A stretch of DNA of 64,000 nucleotides from Rhizodiscina lignyota (Eukaryota), in NCBI GenBank assembly GCA_010015805.1, contig ML978135.1, positions 496,001 to 560,000 on the forward strand, written 5' to 3'. The notes under the pieces are model-generated. The model was given only the letters and a program-made list of their open reading frames with translations. It had not been told where the DNA came from and did not search any database. Position numbers and translations under genes: made by a program. Every line of letters begins with the position of its first letter. Position 1 is the stretch's first letter. Of the stretch, positions 38,395 to 48,365 are shown piece after piece.

Positions 38395-41300
38395 ATGGGA
38401 ATTCTAAAACGAGATCATTTGATTCATACACTAACGGTAGGAAAGGACATGCTTGCGCCTCGTCGGTGCTCAGTATGTGAGCAGTGGATGCAATTCCACG
38501 AAGTCCGCCAGTGTACCAACTGTGGCAAGGGAAATCAGGAAGATCACTACTACTGCATTCTTTGTTCGGAGCCGGGCTGTAAAACGATCAATTGTTCAAA
38601 CCACACGACATGCTGGTTGGACCATCTTCCTGCGTTGAAGCGGATTCGAGAATGGCATCAAATGGTCGACCCCCTGCCGCAGTTATATGTGGACGCCGTT
38701 ACATACTCAGAGGAAAACGAGGCCAAGCAGGAAGAACTACACTACGATGACCGCCTGGCGTCTTGGTTCACCATACGGCCAGATCTAGAAGACAAGGATC
38801 TCTTGCGTCTTATCGTCACAGATCGGTTTCGCCAGCTATGTAATCCTGGAATTGCTGAAAACAAATGGATCGTGAATCAGTACCCCAGCTTCGTGTCGTT
38901 GATAGGCAACACTGGGGTTGGGAAGTCTACTCTTCTGCGCGCAATGTTGCTTCTGGGCCAGCTTCGTGCGACAGGCTACGATGCCGCGGACAAGAACCGA
39001 GAGATGGTTGGGTTAAGAAATATTGTTGCCGCTCGTGCCCAAGGACCTGTCACTAGGTCTGCAAATCTGCTTCATCTTACGAACCCTACCAGTCTTGGTG
39101 TACATCTCTACAAAGATGCGCCACTAGCGCCTGACGACCAAACATTCACAGAAAGCATACCCGGTCAACATATCCGTTATCCGATCCTGTTCGCCGATTG
39201 TGAGGGATTCGGCGCTGGAAATGCCTCGTTGACCTCGGAACGGATCAGCCGACAAGATTCTCCCAGCACGCTCCGCAAAGACCGAGATCGTAGTGCCGCT
39301 CGCAGTGAGCGATCATCCATGAGGAGGAGGGCGTCCGGTGAGACAAACTCTGCCTTTACACGGAGCAGACCTTTCAAAAACGCGATATCAGACTCTCCTA
39401 TCCTCGCAGAAAGTTATAAGCATGGAAGAGGCCCCGAGCTATTCTATGCGCGCTTCCTTTACGCTATGAGTGACGTTCTCGTGTTTGTCACAAAGGATGA
39501 CCAGACCTTTCAGGCCGACATGCAACGATTGATGGAGTGGTCAGCTGCTGCAATCTATAATTCAGTCAACCATGTCGCGCATAAGACACTCATCATCGTT
39601 CGAAATATGCCTGTCCTCCATAACGCGGATTTATTCGAACCACAGATACTTAAATCCACTTTGTTCAGGAACTTGAAGCCGCTTTGGGAAGCATCAGTGC
39701 CCCTTACTGAATTTGTCAAGAATTACAACAGCGGACAAATCCAGCGAGCGGAGAAGATAGAGGTCAACGAGGATCTCTTCCGTGTCTTTTTCCAGAATAT
39801 CAATGCTTGCTATATTCCAGACAAGAGAGGCAGGCCTGCGGCAGAGCTTTTCAAGCAATATGGACTGCTGAGAGACCAGATCACGCGTGCGTCGTTCGAA
39901 GGTAAGTGTAACAGGCTGTCTCATTCCAGTGCAATAATTATCAAGTCACGTAAAACCACCATAAGATGCTCTGCTAATTTTTCAATAGGTCAGAAGAATC
40001 GCCGGAAATGCTGGATCCAATACAATGTTCCTGCGTTATCACATATACTGAACAGAGCATTCGAGCACTTCAGAACGTGAGCTTGTCAAATCCCTTCTTA
40101 CTCTGATAGATTATTTTATTTTATTTTATTTGCCCAGTCAGCTTATGATTAGCAGATCCGACAAGCCCTTCGACTTCTATGTCGCAGCCCGTAACGATAA
40201 CCCCAACCCCGTATCTATGGGAGAACATATAGCAAATCTATTGCGCCACTTGCACGAACTCAGGAGCGAGAACCCGTTGATTCGCGCCCGCATCATCGCA
40301 ATCTGTTTGGTATGCTGGGCAATGAGATACATGGGCCAAGGTGAGCTTCATCTATCAAGTATCAACCTTGACGCGCTTATGTGCTTACAGAGACAGTATA
40401 CAACCCAGACGATATATGGGATCGACATATCAAGGGTGATTGTGAAACCGCTCTCCGCATTTTCGCAAACAGGTATCAAAGATGCAGTTTTACCTTCGCC
40501 GACGGAACACCTTGCATAGTGCGAAGGACCACGCATGACCAGCACTGTAACGAAAGAGGCACGAGACAGCCAGGTGTCTTCACCGAATCATATTTGAAGA
40601 AAGACCTTCAAAATGATCCACTTCTTCAGATTCGAAAAGAGTTTGTCGCTCTCTACGAGACAACCTGCGGCAGCACTTCGCACAGTGGCCCAATTCTCCC
40701 TTCTTTGTCAAGCTTCCGGCAAATAAGAGAGAACACCTTTCGAGAGTTTATCTCCATCTGGAAGCATATCAGGAGCAACAAAACTTGTTTTACATGTTTA
40801 CAAATTGTTCCGGATCATGTGCTGCCTTACGGTCATGTCTACTGTATTGAATGCGTCAAGGAGTTTGGCAAGCCGTCAGAGTACTTTGAGTCCGCTTGGG
40901 AAATGCTTGACTGTGCGCTCTGTGGGACCCGTTGGTATCAGTCTCCGCAGCTGATACGGCTCAAACCTCGCTGTGCAGGCGTCCGCATACTCTCCCTTGA
41001 CGGTGGTGGTGTTCGAGGGATTGTCGAACTTGCGGTTCTCGAGCAGCTCCTCGCAAAAGTTGATCTGGGATTGCCGAATCCCGTTCCGGAACTCTTTGAC
41101 CTTGTAATGGGCACAAGTACAGGTATGCCATGTACTCACATAAAAATATAAGAGACTGGCCAGTGCTAATGTTCGGCTGGAACACAGGAGGCATCATCTC
41201 CCTCTGTCTCGTTCATAAGGTGTATATGCCTATTGCTACTATGAAGGAGAAATTCTTAGAGCTTGCGAAGCGAACATTCGAGAAAGACCGCAGCGGATTT

Positions 41301-42581
41301 ATTGGCAGATTCGACCCACTTCAACTCTTCGTCAAAGCACTCATGCTCATGCGGGTTACCGATAGCATATATTCACCGGATCCGCTACGGGAATGCCTAG
41401 TCGAATTATTTGAACCAGATGTTCGTCTCTTCTCATCTCCGACAAGAACTCACTTCCAGAGGTCAACGAGAGTTGCTGTGACTTCGACAAAAGACAGAGC
41501 TGCAAACAGATGTCTCATTACGAATTACAATCGTCAAAGATACTCCAGTGATCAAAGCCCTGACCTGATAGCCCCATGTGAAGATGACTTTGAGAGAGAA
41601 GATGAAGACAAGCTTGAGATGAAGATCTGGGAGGCCGGGATTGCAACAGCTGCAGCGCCCTTCTATTTTCCTGCATTCTATAAACCGGAGACGAAGAAAG
41701 ACTATGTGGATGGCGCACTGCATGCAAACTTTCCCGGGTCATATGCACTCGAAGAGATGGATAATATTTGGTCGACGTACGGTGTTGACGCTGCTCTCGA
41801 TATTATGGTCTCCATTGGAACAGGTCGACAGACTCGAGATGTTGCCCTGCCAGCGGCATTGAAGATCGGAGGATTCGACGCCATCTGTACAAACTTCCAT
41901 AAGAATATCGAGAGTGAGAGACTCTTCAGAGACTTTGTCAACGGGCCCGGATCCAAACCCGGACTACAGGGCAAGATCCATCGGCTTAATGCAGAAATAT
42001 TTGGCGACTACGTTGCGCTGTATGAGTACAAGAAGATGAGGGACCTTAATGCCATGGTGTCGGAGCAAACAAAGAACACCGTGGACGGATCTCCATCTCT
42101 CAGCAGCAGCATTTCAAGTCTCGCAAACATACTGCTTGCAAACCTCTTTTTCTTCGAACCAGACGAGAACTTCGCCGAAGGAATGGAGATTGTCACACTC
42201 TCCCCGTACCAAAAATCCCACCACGTCAAGCAATTCAAGGGCTCTATTCGTTGTCGGCTAGCATACGACAGCGCCGAGTTGAAATCGCTTGTTCATCGAA
42301 TCGAGGGCTTCCACCACGCCGAGCTATGGCTTGGGCGCACTACTAGCGTCGAAGAACCGCGCTGGACGGTCATACCATTCTCAGACAATCAGCGTAACGC
42401 AATCCGAACCAAACGAGAGCGATTCAGAGTCAACTTCACAATGAAGACGGAAGACGAGGTCCAAAAGCAGCAGGTGATTGTGGTTTCCTTTAGGAATGAA
42501 AGCTTGGATGTGAAGAATTCTATTAGCGGATTTCCGGTGACCTTGATGGAGCTGAAGAAGCGAGCAGGAATAAGACCGTGA
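38395..42581 (+). CDS. Multidomain patatin-like phospholipase with Cys/His-rich N-terminus, GBP/atlastin-like P-loop domain and RING-like finger; 5' exons uncertain
   Basis: CSVC..CTNC..CILC..H..CW; P-loop 'SLIGNTGVGKST' and 'LFADCEG'; RING-like 'CFTCL..PDHVLPYGHVYCIEC..CALC'; patatin motifs DGGGVRG, GTSTGG (across an intron) and DGA. Confidence 0.85.
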
Positions 42582-43223
42582 GCGATAGATTTGTCTCTCC
42601 AATAGCACGTGTGAAGAAGCGACGGCCCTTCTAAGACCGTGCGGCGTTGCGGGTATTTTGGAGGCTATCAGAAGCAACATGTATGTTGTTCGGGATATCG
42701 ATGACACCCAAAAAGGGGCAATGTCTGGACATGAAGCAAAAATTCCGACTAAGCGTGTCACGTGACCCCGACTACATAAAGCGAAGCGCATGGGCATTAG
42801 GACTCTTTTACCTATAAATAAGCTTTAAATAAAAAACATTCTAAAGCATTTTTGACTACACTAGCTGCTAGTTAGTAAATAAGGCTTAGAAGTCAAACCC
42901 GTGCGTATCGGCCCGGCCCGCTAAGCATTTTATTTCGAGCTTTAGCCTGGACTGTCATCCACGGCAATTTGAAGGGCAGAGTGTCCCCAAGGCACTTGAA
43001 ATTTCATAGCTCAATAATGCATTCCTTCTACGACTACATTTTTCAACGTCACACATGTTCTGCAGCACCTCCTGTAACTGTAACCCTCTGGTTTACATTC
43101 TCTCCATCGTCTTTCCAATTCTGCCACCTATTCAGTGGAAGACCTTCGTCAAATTCTTAATGCCCGAACGTTAGCTCAAACTTTTAGATGATGTTGAGAT
43201 TTCTATTGCACTTACCGGCTGTA

Positions 43224-43535
43224 TCATAGCTTGAGCGGGCCATCCTCATCCTGACGGCGTTTGAGGGGACCGTCCTCGTCCTGGCGACGTCTAAGAGGAC
43301 TGTCGTCATCCTGGCGACGTCTAAGAGGACCATCTTCATCCTGACGACGCTTGAGCGGATCGTCTTCATCCTGGCGGCGTTGGAGAGGGAAATCCTCCTG
43401 ACGCTTAGCCTGAATGCGTCCCAGAAGGTCGAACTGGGCAGCTTCCGCCTCACGAGCAGACATTCGCGATGCAATGCCTGCCGGTAATGCAGCTGCGGCC
43501 GCAACAATGGACAAAATGACAATGGAGTACTTCAT
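43224..43535 (-). CDS. Secreted Kex2-processed repeat protein (KEP) / RiPP precursor, 103 aa
   Basis: MKYSIVILSIVAAAAA-LPAGIASRMSAREAEAAQFDLLGRIQAKR-QEDFPLQRR-QDEDDPLKRR-QDEDGPLRRR-QDDDSPLRRR-QDEDGPLKRR-QDEDGPLKL. A TATATAA box lies on the minus strand ~95 nt upstream (~43630-43636). Confidence 0.9.
   Translation of the reverse strand: MKYSIVILSIVAAAAALPAGIASRMSAREAEAAQFDLLGRIQAKRQEDFPLQRRQDEDDPLKRRQDEDGPLRRRQDDDSPLRRRQDEDGPLKRRQDEDGPLKL
43230..43405 (-). repeat. Tandem 30-nt coding repeats (5 full copies plus one shorter 27-nt unit) of the KEP core peptides
   Basis: Repeated 'cgtcgccaggacgaggacggtcccctcaaa'-like units with mostly synonymous variation. Confidence 0.9.
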
Positions 43536-44095
43536 ATTTACTCTCAGGATATCGTAGAAAGATGATGTATGTTGTTGAGGGGTGATCCGCGAATTGTTGT
43601 GCACCAGAGAGCTCGGGAATCGATGAGCCTTATATACACCTGTTGAGAGGCCTCGAGCACCTCCCGTGTTATCCGGATTCCTCGGTAGTACCACAATCTT
43701 CCGATCTGAAAAGTAAACAGTATTCTCAAATCAAAGCCAACAAGCTGATTTGGATCCGTGCTATCGCTCTCCTTCACAGCAGCATTGTCCTCAATGGCAC
43801 CGACTGGGATCTTGCAAGGAGGCGCTGGCACTCGCTGCATATAAGATTCAAGAACAGGTCTCGACTTCTTATATGTCTTAAATTGATTAATTCCCCACCT
43901 CTGTTTAAAGCCACGGCATTTCGACATAAGCCATAAGTCATACCTTATCTGGACGTTGAGCAATACTCCCAAGATCGGTCAATGTAAGAGTAATAAACGT
44001 TCGATCGACCAGACAGGTTTCCCTCTGCCGCACACTTTCCTCATCCTTCCCGTCTCAGGATTCCCACCCTTCCTTCGTTTCTAGTATCTTCAGAA

Positions 44096-45042
44096 ATGTC
44101 GCATCGATATGAGAAACTGGAAACCGCTGAGTATACAGAAGACTTCATTGATCGGCGTTCATGGCCCTACAATGTGGTCACCACGTTGCTCGGGTTAAAT
44201 GCTCTTCTGCTCTTCGCTCTTGTCTCTGCAATTGCTCTTTACCACGACCGGTCCGTATCAGCTCCGTACGAGGGAGGGTCCGCCATTGATCGAGGCAAGT
44301 AAGTCCCATTCGAGATATTGATCATTTGCTCACTCAAACTGCAGGTCTTGGAATACCGATACAACTCCAGCATGTGCAATTCACTGGAAGTCCCGTTTTT
44401 GACGAAAACGGGGTCAGCTCCATTCCTCCGAGGGACCCTAAGAGCCGCTGGCCAGAAAATGCGACATATTTTGGAGAAGCGAGCAAATCCATGGATGAGG
44501 TCTGGCATAAATTGACGAAGCCTTTCGAGTTTGCCCTATCCGAAGCGGAAGCAAAGTCGATATGGGGTGATAGATACACCACACACCGAGATCCTCGTGA
44601 CGGAAGGTATATGGCAGGGTAAGTTCCCTTGTTCTTCGCTTCGCGACAGCTTCTTAACTCTCAATAGTCTAGATGTCTTTCACAATTTACATTGTCTAGA
44701 CTACGTTCGTCGAGCATTCGATCCGCAGCAGTACCCTTTAACGCCGTACCATGGCAAAGTCCATTTAGGTAAGGAATTCATCGTATTCTAAGACATTCTC
44801 TAGTCAGTTCGCTAAACAGATGGCCTTGATTTAATCCAGAACATTGCCTGGACAACCTTCGTCAGACAATTCAATGCTATGGAAGCACGACCATCATACC
44901 AATATCGTACAGAAAAGGATTGGGCCATGGGTATATTGACGCGGACCAATCACATACCTGTCGGGATATTCGACAGCTACGAAGTTGGGTTGATGAGCGA
45001 ATACAAAGATCAAGGGCTGATCGCGGGCGGCGAGATGTGTGA
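44096..45042 (+). CDS. DUF3328 / UstYa-family (HxxHC) oxidative tailoring enzyme; 4 exons
   Basis: N-terminal TM 'VVTTLLGLNALLLFALVSAIALY'. Exons 44096-44294, 44345-44618, 44668-44768 and 44840-45042 give 'GLDVFHNLHCLDYVRR', 'VHLEHCLDNLRQTIQCYGSTT' and 'HTCRD...W', i.e. two HxxHC motifs. Confidence 0.92.
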
Positions 45043-48000
45043 CCCGTAATGATACTGTGTATGACCTGTCTCGTGATCATTGTGCTTGCTCGGAACTACA
45101 CGTATATTAAAAATGGAGCACTATCCCAGTTAAGAAGCAGCAGCAGAAGCAGAGAGGCGGTGGACAATCTATCGAGTGACAAACTACATGTGCATGAGAA
45201 TGAGCCGGGGGAGATAATGCGAAGGTCCGCAGCTCTCGCCGCCTTGAGCAATCTCAATCCTGCAGAGTGCTGGAGATCCTTGCGTTCTTTTAGACCTACC
45301 AAGACCTACTCTGAACCACCTACCGTAAATGCAATATCAGAATACTCTGGAGCTTGGCGAAATACCCTGATATCATATTTAAAGCTCCTCGCTAAACTAT
45401 CCTAGGTAGGTAGGTAGCTGATAGAGTACGCTCGGGCTTTCTTCTATATCGAGCGATATTCGCCTTCATATACTGAAGATCCTAGTATAAGGAACAGGAA
45501 CAGAATGGCTCCCAACAAACCATTGCAACCCCTCTTTCTCACCTGTTATAATCTTGCTAGCCCGCGTTGTCGTAACCGCTGTCACGTCAGCCTTATAGAT
45601 ATTGAAAAGTCATTTTCGCCTCTCGTGACTCGTCAGCCTCCATCTCCAACGACACGCTAATGTACCCCATCCAGTCATGATTGGTCCAAAGGGCCTCAGC
45701 AATGTGCTCACGACGTACCAGAATCGTAAACGTCAGTTCCCTAAGATGTTCATGGTTAGTATGTCGTATGGGACTGTGCCGCCGATATAACCTGTGGCGC
45801 CCGCCAGACGAATCCTGAGGCTAGTCTTCACTTGCGTCCACAATTCCTATTCGAGCAAAAGTCATTTCAGAAAGCAAAATATACGTAGGATAACATTTTG
45901 TCAATGCTCAGCAAGCTTCAAGTATGAATAGATATGCATGTTGATCAAGGGACCGGAAACCATTCTGTATATACAAATCTTACCTAATGCCAGAAGCCTA
46001 CCAAATTACTAGCAAAGGTTTGATGCATGTCAGACTAGCACTTTCCAAATAAGAATCTGGCGCCCATTCAATTGATCCCTCTCCGAAGAGGAAGGATGTA
46101 ACCATTGGGAAGGCTTGAGCATTCCACTGATACAAATCTTCATCAAGATTACATACTATTTTCGCATCAATGGAATACTCAATCTGTACTGTGCAGCAAC
46201 TCGGTTTATTTTCTGGCTTTGGCCGCATGAACTCGGAAACTCTCGACCTCGAGGAAGTTGATACGTTATTGACAGAGCCAGATCAGCCAGAATAGCAAGG
46301 CACTTGCTAGTTGGCGAATAAGTTCCCATCAATATTTTGCTCAACCCTTACAACCCGACTAGTGGGACTCAGCTCGGTAACATCGAGTCGGAAAAGCTCC
46401 AGTTATGCAGGATCTGCCTTTATCCTTTGTTTCTTATCGCCATGAGACGGACATCGCAATCAAACGGTAGCGCTAGGAACAAGGCCCTTTGTTGTCTCTA
46501 ACGACATCAGAAATTCGGTGCTCGTAAAGGCCATCCTCAGTGGAAAGATGAGTGCAAAGACGCTCCATCGTGCTCGCCATACAGGCTGATGTATCCATCA
46601 AGCGGTCAATTTTGTGCACGGCTCTCGATAGTTGCTTTCAGGTCTCTGTTGAATGTTTCAAATCCCTCTACAGTCTGCTTCCGCATACCCCAGCCGGGCC
46701 TGAAAAGAAAAGCGAGAAGCCCATTGAGGTCTTCTTTTTGGACTAGTATCGTTTTCTTGGGGCTCTCCAGATCGGGAGAGAAGTAGAATTGGTGTTCTCC
46801 GGTCAATAGCCCAAGGAAATTTCCACGTCACCTAAAGGATTCTGGAGAATTTTCCTGATAGACGATGTTAAACGGACATCGGCGATAGGTACAGTGTTCA
46901 GCCACCTACCAGGACGACAGGCTTGATCGTAGTTCCTTTCAGATCAATTTTCAATCGGTCTTCGGGCATTAAATCGGCGGGCTGTACGTTAGGATTAAGG
47001 GATTCGAAAGTCCAATCCTGATGCCACTCCTTGTATCGCTGGAAATCCAAGAACTGCTAATTGTAAGTATTATATGTACGTCGGTCAAGTACCGCGCCAT
47101 ACCACTGCTCGAACGGTTTTTGGTGAAGCCGCGATCTCGATCTGAGTGACTATGCTTTGAGATTGTCCCATGATTTAATGTACCGAGAGAAAGTGGCGCC
47201 TGATAAGTGGTTGTTTCAAAACCGGCAAGTTGATAGCGTTAACTGCGTTTGGTGTGTTGGCACTGCTGCCGAAACTCGTGCGTAAGCGTCTCTGTGGAAC
47301 TCGAGATACAAACGATTCCGCCCGAACGGCACTCGGTACCTTTATAAGCGTCACCCTCGACTACACCGCCGAGACGAGGAAACGACGTAGCCGCCAGCCA
47401 CATCCTTCGTCTCGGTGCCGACCGAAGCCAACCAATATCGTGGTGCATGTCATGCTTGAAGCCACATATCCCGAGGTTACGCCGATCAGAGTGAGTGGAC
47501 AGTTTGACAGCATGATTCTCCTTCGAAATTGTGCACAGGGTGTCCTCAGAGACCTAGGGCATCGTGTACGGTAAAGTTATGGGAGAAATGGTATTGCCTC
47601 TGTAAGCGATCTAACGCGGCGCTAAATGATACCATTCAGCCTTTCACTGTCCCAAACCCTCTGCAAAGGCTACCATGTGTGAGCATGTCGCCTGGCACGC
47701 CAGAGATAATAAAATCCTCTACATCGTGATCTCGAACGGGTTTTAATACTGCACCGCGCCCCACATCCAATGAGAGGTCCACAAATGTCTTCGAGAAGCT
47801 CCATGTGGATGGATCGGCTGTCTCGGTGCCGACGATCGATTTGGTTGATTTTAATTCGCCGGGAGAACGAGCCATCGAATATGGCCAGCCAATATTTCGC
47901 GTTTTGGTCTCAAATGAATAATCCACGGACTAGAAGAGAGCTCATGCGAGAACTCCTCTGTATAGAATTGTAAGTAAACAGACGACAAGGCCAGATTGAA

Positions 48001-48365
48001 AGTTCGATTCAATGATAGAGAAAACACCACAGCATGGCCATGGGATGACTTCTAACTTGTCTAACTCAGAGTGCGCATTGCAGAATGGAAATCTGAGGCA
48101 TTGCATAAAATCTGCTAATTTCGCGATTTGGAGGCAACTGATAAAGTGACTTTTTGAACGTCATAACATACCTTGGACTAATCGTACACTTACTGAACGG
48201 AGGCCTCCCCAAATATGTGGACGAGGCTGGTTAATATCCCAATCATTGAAGAATTGCAACAACTTGGCGAGTCCAGAGAGAGCTCTTACAGGCAGTAGCG
48301 ATGAATTTATCACGAACTGCAATGGCGGGGAGAAAGTCGGAATAAAATTGGCGTACGGTTGGATG

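Follow-up and report, generated by a model that had tools for sequence, protein, structure and literature searches.

A repeat-precursor gene and a UstYa-family gene form a divergent pair in Rhizodiscina lignyota: a candidate minimal two-gene dikaritin-type unit

Can a fungal peptide pathway be made up of just two genes, one for a secreted repeat precursor and one for an oxidase? The question is raised by a locus of Rhizodiscina lignyota, a dothideomycete that lives on wood, at positions 43224 to 45042 of a 64,000-nucleotide (nt) stretch of contig ML978135.1 (GenBank assembly GCA_010015805.1, positions 496,001 to 560,000 of the forward strand). This whole stretch is the window of the following account, and positions are counted from its first letter. 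A gene for a short protein with tandem acidic repeats lies there head-to-head with a single gene of the UstYa (DUF3328) family. We put at roughly 0.58 the probability that the two genes constitute a minimal, dikaritin-type unit resembling those for peptides that are made on ribosomes and modified after translation (RiPPs), a reading that is drawn from their sequence. By analogy, the pair would work in the manner of the asperipin-2a and epichloecyclin systems, with a repeat precursor and one DUF3328 enzyme, but without the core aromatic residue and the accessory genes of those systems.

The precursor gene (43224..43535, minus strand) is a single exon of 103 codons plus stop (TGA, 43224-43226). 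The N-terminus of its product is hydrophobic, reading by eye as MK, then YSIVILSIVAAAAAL, then PAGIA/S. Residues 1-22 (MKYSIVILSIVAAAAALPAGIA; 43470..43535, minus strand), in which n, h and c regions and small residues at -3 and -1 can be made out by eye, are probably a signal peptide that is cut before SR. A pro-region of 23 amino acids (aa) follows (residues 23-45; 43401..43469, minus strand) and closes with the first dibasic site, AKR. (The pro-region contains the sequence REAEAA, in which we presume a resemblance to KR-EAEA, the spacer that a dipeptidyl aminopeptidase removes from the alpha-factor precursor of yeast.) All the rest of the protein, residues 46-103 (43227..43400, minus strand), consists of six acidic units with QRR, KRR or RRR spacers, in the order QEDFPLQ-RR, QDEDDPL-KRR, QDEDGPL-RRR, QDDDSPL-RRR, QDEDGPL-KRR and QDEDGPL-KL-stop. 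The units have Gln first and Pro-Leu last, and immediately before the Pro comes a residue that varies (F, D, G, S, G and G in turn); five of the six fit the pattern Q[DE][DE]D.PL. At all six junctions the basic site is [KR]R with Gln next. This is the precursor, with signal peptide, pro-region and six units delimited by dibasic or tribasic sites, that the initial annotation had described, and the peptides predicted there do follow the canonical rules of Kex2 and Kex1 processing, as far as layout goes.

Is so short an open reading frame (ORF) a real gene? The three QDEDGPL units are identical in amino acids, and between any two of them 4-5 of the 7 codons differ, with 13 synonymous differences and not one non-synonymous difference in all. 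Identical peptides spelled in different codons, with synonymous changes only, imply selection on the peptide sequence. When the five 10-codon units are compared pairwise, the codon differences are synonymous in 39 cases and non-synonymous in 25, and these 25 cluster at the variable position and at the K/R sites. The codon pattern is, on this comparison, a signature of selection, and it speaks against both a chance ORF and a recent duplication of the DNA. A scan for ORFs with at least three similar segments between dibasic sites, run over the window and over 14 other loci (metagenomic, described below), found the precursor ORF and nothing else.

The small protein might instead be a secreted, disordered polyampholyte of alternating charge that functions intact and is no precursor. 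Its repeat region has the appropriate composition, since 18 of the 58 residues are acidic and 15 basic (D13 R12 Q7 L7 P6 E5 K3 G3 F1 S1), and the ESM Atlas, which contains the protein letter for letter, has an unstructured model of it (mean predicted local distance difference test score 0.42). The strict [KR]R-Gln register at six of six junctions and the conserved Pro-Leu ends nevertheless look as though cleavage had defined them. Moreover, Kex2 cuts at [KR]R sites that lie exposed in disordered secreted proteins. On balance, function as an intact polyampholyte is very improbable.

The other member of the pair was assigned to its family by the profile search that the initial annotation had recommended. 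Its exons were scored one by one, rather than as a spliced protein, against the 220-position profile PF11807 (UstYa; gathering cut-off 25 bits), and three of them match in order: exon 2 with 14.6 bits (profile positions 59-126), exon 3 with 26.0 bits (128-153) and exon 4 with 43.8 bits (168-220). Exons 3 and 4 each exceed the cut-off on their own, and the pieces together span profile positions 59-220. Two HxxHC motifs are present, HNLHC (44681-44695), which lies wholly in exon 3, and HLEHC (44762-44768 and 44840-44847), which straddles the exon 3/4 junction; both align with those of 11 homologues. A double HxxHC motif has been suggested as the mark of RiPP-related DUF3328 proteins (PMC12048977). 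A hydrophobic stretch of 23 residues (approximately residues 27-49), which aligns with hydrophobic stretches of the homologues, is a putative membrane anchor.

The gene is on the plus strand and in four exons. Exon 1 (44096..44294) encodes a short N-terminus, predicted to be cytosolic, the putative anchor (approximately 44174-44242) and a YEGG motif, and aligns with the N-termini of full-length homologues. It is followed by a first intron of 50 nt (44295..44344, gag/GCAAGT...TGCAG/gt), identified by its score against a hidden Markov model (HMM) and by the intron position in relatives. Exon 2 (44345..44618) has 56 relatives at E<=0.001. Intron 2 (49 nt, 44619..44667) and intron 3 (71 nt, 44769..44839) are both GT-AG and were placed by alignment with homologues. 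Exon 3, between them (44668..44768), carries HNLHC and the start of the second motif (HL, 44762-44767), its assignment resting on the Pfam match and the alignment, and exon 4 (44840..45042) completes HLEHC (to 44847) and continues with QCYGST and HTCRD to the stop at 45040-45042. The spliced coding sequence of 777 nt specifies 258 residues that align end to end with 11 homologues, and HNLHC, HLEHC, QCYGST, HTCRD and the conserved Cys residues are all retained in that alignment.

The initial annotation's claim of an intact four-exon DUF3328 gene stands as to the open frame and the two HxxHC motifs, but it holds only with a particular first intron. The obvious GT donor, at 44299, leaves exon 1 (MSHRYEKLE...) out of frame with exon 2, and the gene is therefore intact only if its first intron is GC-AG. 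All combinations of GT or GC donors with AG acceptors that leave an open frame (n=23) were scored against an HMM of 10 full-length homologues: GC44295-AG44344 had the top score, 253.3 bits, the best GT choice had 250.0 bits and the public gene model had 86.4 bits. The margin of the GC-AG intron over the best GT choice is small, about 3 bits, and the homology score alone leaves the splice site unsettled. Relatives at the metagenomic loci L001-L008, read by eye, have a GT intron at the identical position and in the identical phase; the codon that the intron splits lies 12 residues ahead of the Phe in a conserved FTGSP motif. To judge from reading frame and intron position together, the first intron is most probably GC-AG. 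Of two other introns that were considered, GT44299-AG44390 would remove residues that are conserved in 56 relatives and was rejected, and GT44251-AG44294 (44 nt, with a weak donor) scores 3 bits lower, deletes the conserved YE.G motif and was judged less likely.

Might the gene instead be decaying and non-functional, with splicing at GT 44299 producing a frameshift and the precursor acting alone? The public model, NA57DRAFT_60885, does splice at a GT donor and is without either HxxHC motif; the best GT-AG alternative is, as just stated, only 3 bits under the GC-AG model. Against this, the GC donor has the full consensus (gag/GCAAGT) and sits at the position and in the phase of the relatives' intron, the remaining exons are open with all conserved motifs retained, and the public model falls as far short as 86.4 bits against 253.3. 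Nor is the frame problem a sequencing error, since an independent assembly of a DNA run, at a depth of about 157, is identical to the window over 43000-45300 (although that run may be the deposited assembly's own source data). Decay of the enzyme gene is thus improbable.

The public model owes its lack of a UstYa signature to mis-splicing at the GC-AG intron. It is a protein of 189 aa, and part of it is 100% identical to the translation of exon 2. Its start is a later ATG in another frame, its first donor is a GT 4 nt past the GC donor and its intron-2 acceptor lies 5 nt too far downstream; exons 1, 3 and 4 are read in wrong frames, with the loss of both HxxHC motifs.

What ties the two genes to each other? 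Their ATGs (43535 and 44096) face away from a gap of exactly 560 base pairs (bp), the distance given in the initial annotation, and this intergenic region (43536..44095) is a putative bidirectional promoter. The HMM scan of all six frames found exactly one UstYa gene in the window. Neither near the pair nor across the window is there a tyrosinase, a second UstYa gene or a second precursor (Pfam searches of 16 and 33 ORFs; six-frame HMM scan), and the 49 larger ORFs of the window include no subtilase, no dedicated peptidase and no exporter of the ABC or MFS drug type. The asperipin-2a cluster has, as we take it, a reductase and a transporter in addition to its precursor and enzyme genes; neither is present at the Rhizodiscina pair. 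That no other tailoring gene or dedicated transporter stands beside the pair, as had been stated from the first look at the sequence, holds for these 49 ORFs and for the six-frame scan.

The published survey of repeat proteins that Kex2 processes (KEPs; Umemura 2020, PMC7329392) gives this arrangement statistical weight. The survey found 7878 KEPs, 22% of them with a DUF3328 gene within 15 genes, and the counts of DUF3328 genes near KEPs peak at the directly adjacent position; 31.8% of all DUF3328 matches are near KEPs, as against 0.7% for MFS_1. The argument for a functional link is a statistical one. It draws on the adjacency of the genes, their common 560-bp region, the lack of a rival substrate among the scanned ORFs and the published enrichment, which together suggest that the precursor is the substrate of the enzyme. 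Two definitions of dikaritin clusters exist, according to PMC12048977. The older, five-gene definition has a tyrosinase, a methyltransferase, several DUF3328 genes and a transporter or peptidase (PMC12048977), and such accessory genes are absent from the ORFs scanned here; what is present is a DUF3328 gene beside a leader-plus-repeat precursor, in a divergent pair 560 bp apart. That neighbourhood, with DUF3328 as the class-defining enzyme, is what published work uses to recognize RiPPs of the dikaritin type.

A number of observations weigh against reading the pair as a RiPP-like unit, and they are best taken together. Some concern the precursor itself. Its 58-residue repeat region contains no Tyr, Trp or His, and the cores accordingly lack the aromatic residue (Tyr) on which a dikaritin's oxidative cross-link is formed and, more generally, the residues that are used in every characterized DUF3328 cross-link. 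To our knowledge, every characterized peptide pathway with a DUF3328/UstYa enzyme builds on an aromatic residue. The published KEP screen looked for a SignalP signal peptide and at least three repeats, each no shorter than 8 aa from one KR/KK/RK/RR site to the next (PMC7329392). The number of repeats delimited by such sites suffices here, but the peptides between sites are 7 aa long and come to 8 aa only by inclusion of the first basic residue of KRR or RRR; because of that length the precursor is at the margin of the screen and may have escaped it. Searches of a collection of 5.8 billion proteins returned no relative of the precursor, whether of 56-181 aa or of 182-2000 aa (the precursor itself is absent from the results, there being no self-match). 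The strings of its motifs yielded no relevant match in the open-access literature. Pfam has no match for the precursor, and neither Rhizodiscina nor the precursor motifs occur in the Umemura supplements. In the ESM Atlas the closest feature clusters are composed of hypothetical proteins from ascomycetes (0.84) and of the alpha-factor precursor, MF_alpha (0.81); matches below 0.9 such as these are leads only.

Other such observations concern the relatives of the enzyme. A HMMER search with exon 2 against 1.84 billion representative sequences gave 56 matches at E<=0.001, and the best of them are only 45-48% identical and come from other fungal classes, with no close orthologue; the named ones among them, all hypothetical proteins, come from Thozetella, Scytalidium, Xylogone, Penicillium, Trichoderma, Cercophora and Lasiosphaeria. 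(About 100-150 nt ahead of the exon-2 match, at L001-L008, gene callers read through conserved introns or stop at them, and many database proteins of the family therefore end at GGYTAG, the end of exon 2, or include a translated intron.) A scan of metagenome contigs, based on an alignment of six sequences, yielded 14 loci bearing relatives of 32-56% identity, and in none of the 14 did three different scans find a KEP-like ORF. At one of these loci (L008:2988-9235) a UstYa relative, 44% identical over exon 2, has an M3 peptidase and a tyrosinase as its neighbours; at another (L012:28-6240) two UstYa-family genes lie beside a highly reducing polyketide synthase (PKS) with AT, KR and ACP domains. 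L008 resembles an ustiloxin-like set, but the 12 kb examined there yielded no repeat precursor; at L012 this branch of the UstYa family is in a setting other than that of a RiPP. The proposal, in the initial annotation, that the same gene pair be sought in other genomes has thus turned up nothing in its support, neither precursor relatives of 56-2000 aa nor a single KEP among the 14 loci. The second of these results is weak evidence against pairing, because the loci are not orthologues and metagenome contigs are not a collection of fungal genomes. In seven of the 14 the upstream sequence runs to 1.2 kb or more, room for a precursor placed as it is here, and L004-L006 appear to be from one organism.

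These same facts can be turned into an alternative account, in which the small protein is an ordinary KEP whose acidic peptides are secreted unmodified (for instance as by-products of processing, as signals, or to bind metal or calcium), the UstYa enzyme has some other substrate and the adjacency is meaningless. The absence of Tyr, Trp and His from the cores and of a KEP from 14 of 14 loci with enzyme relatives, two of which have the enzyme gene beside a PKS or a tyrosinase gene, agrees with that account. The figures of the KEP survey do as well, since a nearby DUF3328 gene is lacking for 78% of KEPs, and about 68% of DUF3328 genes, some two thirds, are not near a KEP (PMC7329392), a statistic that itself counts against the two-gene reading. 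Non-ribosomal pathways, that of cyclochlorotine among them, likewise employ DUF3328 enzymes (PMC12048977). It is unlikely, on the other hand, that a KEP gene should by chance have come to lie divergently, 560 bp away, from the only UstYa gene in a 64-kb stretch whose other genes are housekeeping ones, and the scanned ORFs of the window offer the enzyme no alternative substrate gene, be it for a non-ribosomal peptide synthetase, a PKS or a second precursor. One unmodified KEP, the yeast alpha-factor precursor, is laid out like the Rhizodiscina protein, with signal peptide (a probable one in the Rhizodiscina protein), pro-region and tandem peptides. In precursors of the alpha-factor type the tandem peptides are freed by Kex2 and trimmed by Kex1. 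Mating-factor peptides are longer, and hydrophobic or aromatic; they are not acidic heptapeptides. Mating-factor KEPs, moreover, almost never adjoin DUF3328 genes, according to the survey (PMC7329392). We consider it unlikely, though by no means negligibly so, that the acidic peptides go unmodified.

If the pair is a two-gene unit, it has partial counterparts among known systems. One of them, asperipin-2a of Aspergillus flavus, has a repeat precursor with a signal peptide and Kex2 sites, and a single DUF3328 enzyme for the key modification; it differs in its Tyr-rich core and its ether bonds to the Tyr ring (PMC7329392), the Rhizodiscina cores being acidic and devoid of Tyr, Trp and His. The epichloecyclin cluster of Epichloe festucae, gigA-gigB-gigC-kexB, is likewise small, with a repeat precursor cut at dibasic sites and one DUF3328 protein for maturation, but it includes a methyltransferase and a dedicated kexin, and its 27-mer units are cyclized through a conserved Tyr (PMC10540207); the Rhizodiscina pair is of two genes only, and its units are 7 residues long and free of Tyr. 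Ustiloxin and phomopsin share with it a KEP-type precursor and UstYa-family proteins with two HxxHC motifs and differ in that their clusters contain 2-5 DUF3328 genes along with a tyrosinase, methyltransferases, and peptidases or transporters, and in that the macrocycle is built on Tyr. The phomopsin DUF3328 enzymes PhomYc, PhomYd and PhomYe have been assigned to dehydro-Ile, dehydro-Asp and dehydro-Pro (PMC10880069), and these targets (Ile, Asp, Pro) include kinds of residue that are present in the Rhizodiscina cores.

This bears on the chemistry. The initial annotation had argued that cores without Tyr or Trp imply a different chemistry and a different class of peptide. Its premise is correct, for there is no Tyr or Trp in the cores, and since Tyr, Trp and His are all missing the enzyme cannot form the Tyr-ether macrocycle of ustiloxin or asperipin. 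The conclusion is an extrapolation, because PhomYc, PhomYd and PhomYe have already been assigned to Ile, Asp and Pro (PMC10880069), so that DUF3328 chemistry at Asp and Pro is known. Cores free of Tyr are also common: the survey gives Tyr in 65.6% of the repeat sequences of DUF3328-linked KEPs, against 38.2% in the rest (PMC7329392), and so about one third of the DUF3328-linked repeat sequences are Tyr-free, which makes the absence of Tyr not rare. The activities that have been described for DUF3328 enzymes include ether-bond formation, hydroxylation, chlorination and transacylation (PMC12048977).

A pathway can be proposed on this basis. Both genes would be transcribed from the shared 560-bp divergent region, and the 103-aa prepropeptide would enter the endoplasmic reticulum through its signal peptide. 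The UstYa oxidase, presumably anchored in the membrane by its N-terminus and facing the lumen, would meet the precursor in the secretory pathway and would there most likely hydroxylate, desaturate or halogenate an invariant residue (Asp/Glu, Pro or Leu), as DUF3328 enzymes do in phomopsin and cyclochlorotine. Kex2 would then be expected to cleave after each [KR]R, directly ahead of Gln, a carboxypeptidase of the Kex1 type to trim the trailing basic residues, and the N-terminal Gln to become pyroglutamate. (Kex2 cutting, Kex1 trimming and the cyclization of N-terminal Gln are established steps of peptide processing.) Each precursor would yield six acidic peptides: (p)QDEDGPL three times, with C-terminal KL retained in the last, and QEDFPLQ, QDEDDPL and QDDDSPL once each. 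Calculated [M-H]- values of the pyroglutamyl forms, without other modification, are 754.2901 for QDEDGPL, 812.2955 for QDEDDPL, 770.2850 for QDDDSPL, 857.3687 for QEDFPLQ and 995.4691 for QDEDGPLKL. The specific proposal, that the enzyme modifies these aromatic-free acidic heptapeptides at Asp/Glu, Pro or Leu (for example by beta-hydroxylation or desaturation) and that two genes thereby make a linear, non-macrocyclic pyroglutamyl RiPP, is tentative, with a likelihood that we would place somewhat short of even.

The surroundings of the locus remain to be described. Upstream, at 38395-42581 on the plus strand, a P-loop NTPase motif precedes a patatin-like phospholipase domain, in one large gene or in more than one; the product, possibly NLR-like, is unrelated to the pair. 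The approximately 3.2 kb downstream of the UstYa gene (45043-48300) contain no ORF of a recognizable family, ORFs of at least 70 aa having been listed and two of them searched against Pfam. Beyond this gap are genes for Erv26, a methyltransferase of the Bud23 type (WBS_methylT, the only methyltransferase among the scanned ORFs of the window) and isocitrate dehydrogenase; farther away are aconitase, Vps36, Sac3 and a sugar transporter. An amino-acid permease and an M28 peptidase are 7 kb and 13 kb from the pair, respectively. Since its neighbours are housekeeping or unrelated genes, the pair stands alone, outside any secondary-metabolite island.

The pair is a good lead for genome mining; it is not a member of any characterized family and not a demonstrated new class. 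One can speculate, at long odds, that peptides rich in hydroxy- or dehydro-Asp serve this wood-dwelling fungus as ribosomally made chelators of metal or calcium. For genome mining the locus illustrates two blind spots. On the side of the enzyme, a GC-AG intron has led to a mis-spliced public model that is without the UstYa signature, and the annotation is worth correcting; on the side of the precursor, the protein is missing from the collection searched here and its units fall under the published minimum length for KEPs. Lastly, with a single precursor, a single enzyme and no further cluster gene, the locus is near the minimum size and would provide a clean test bed for the action of a single UstYa enzyme on a simple acidic peptide.

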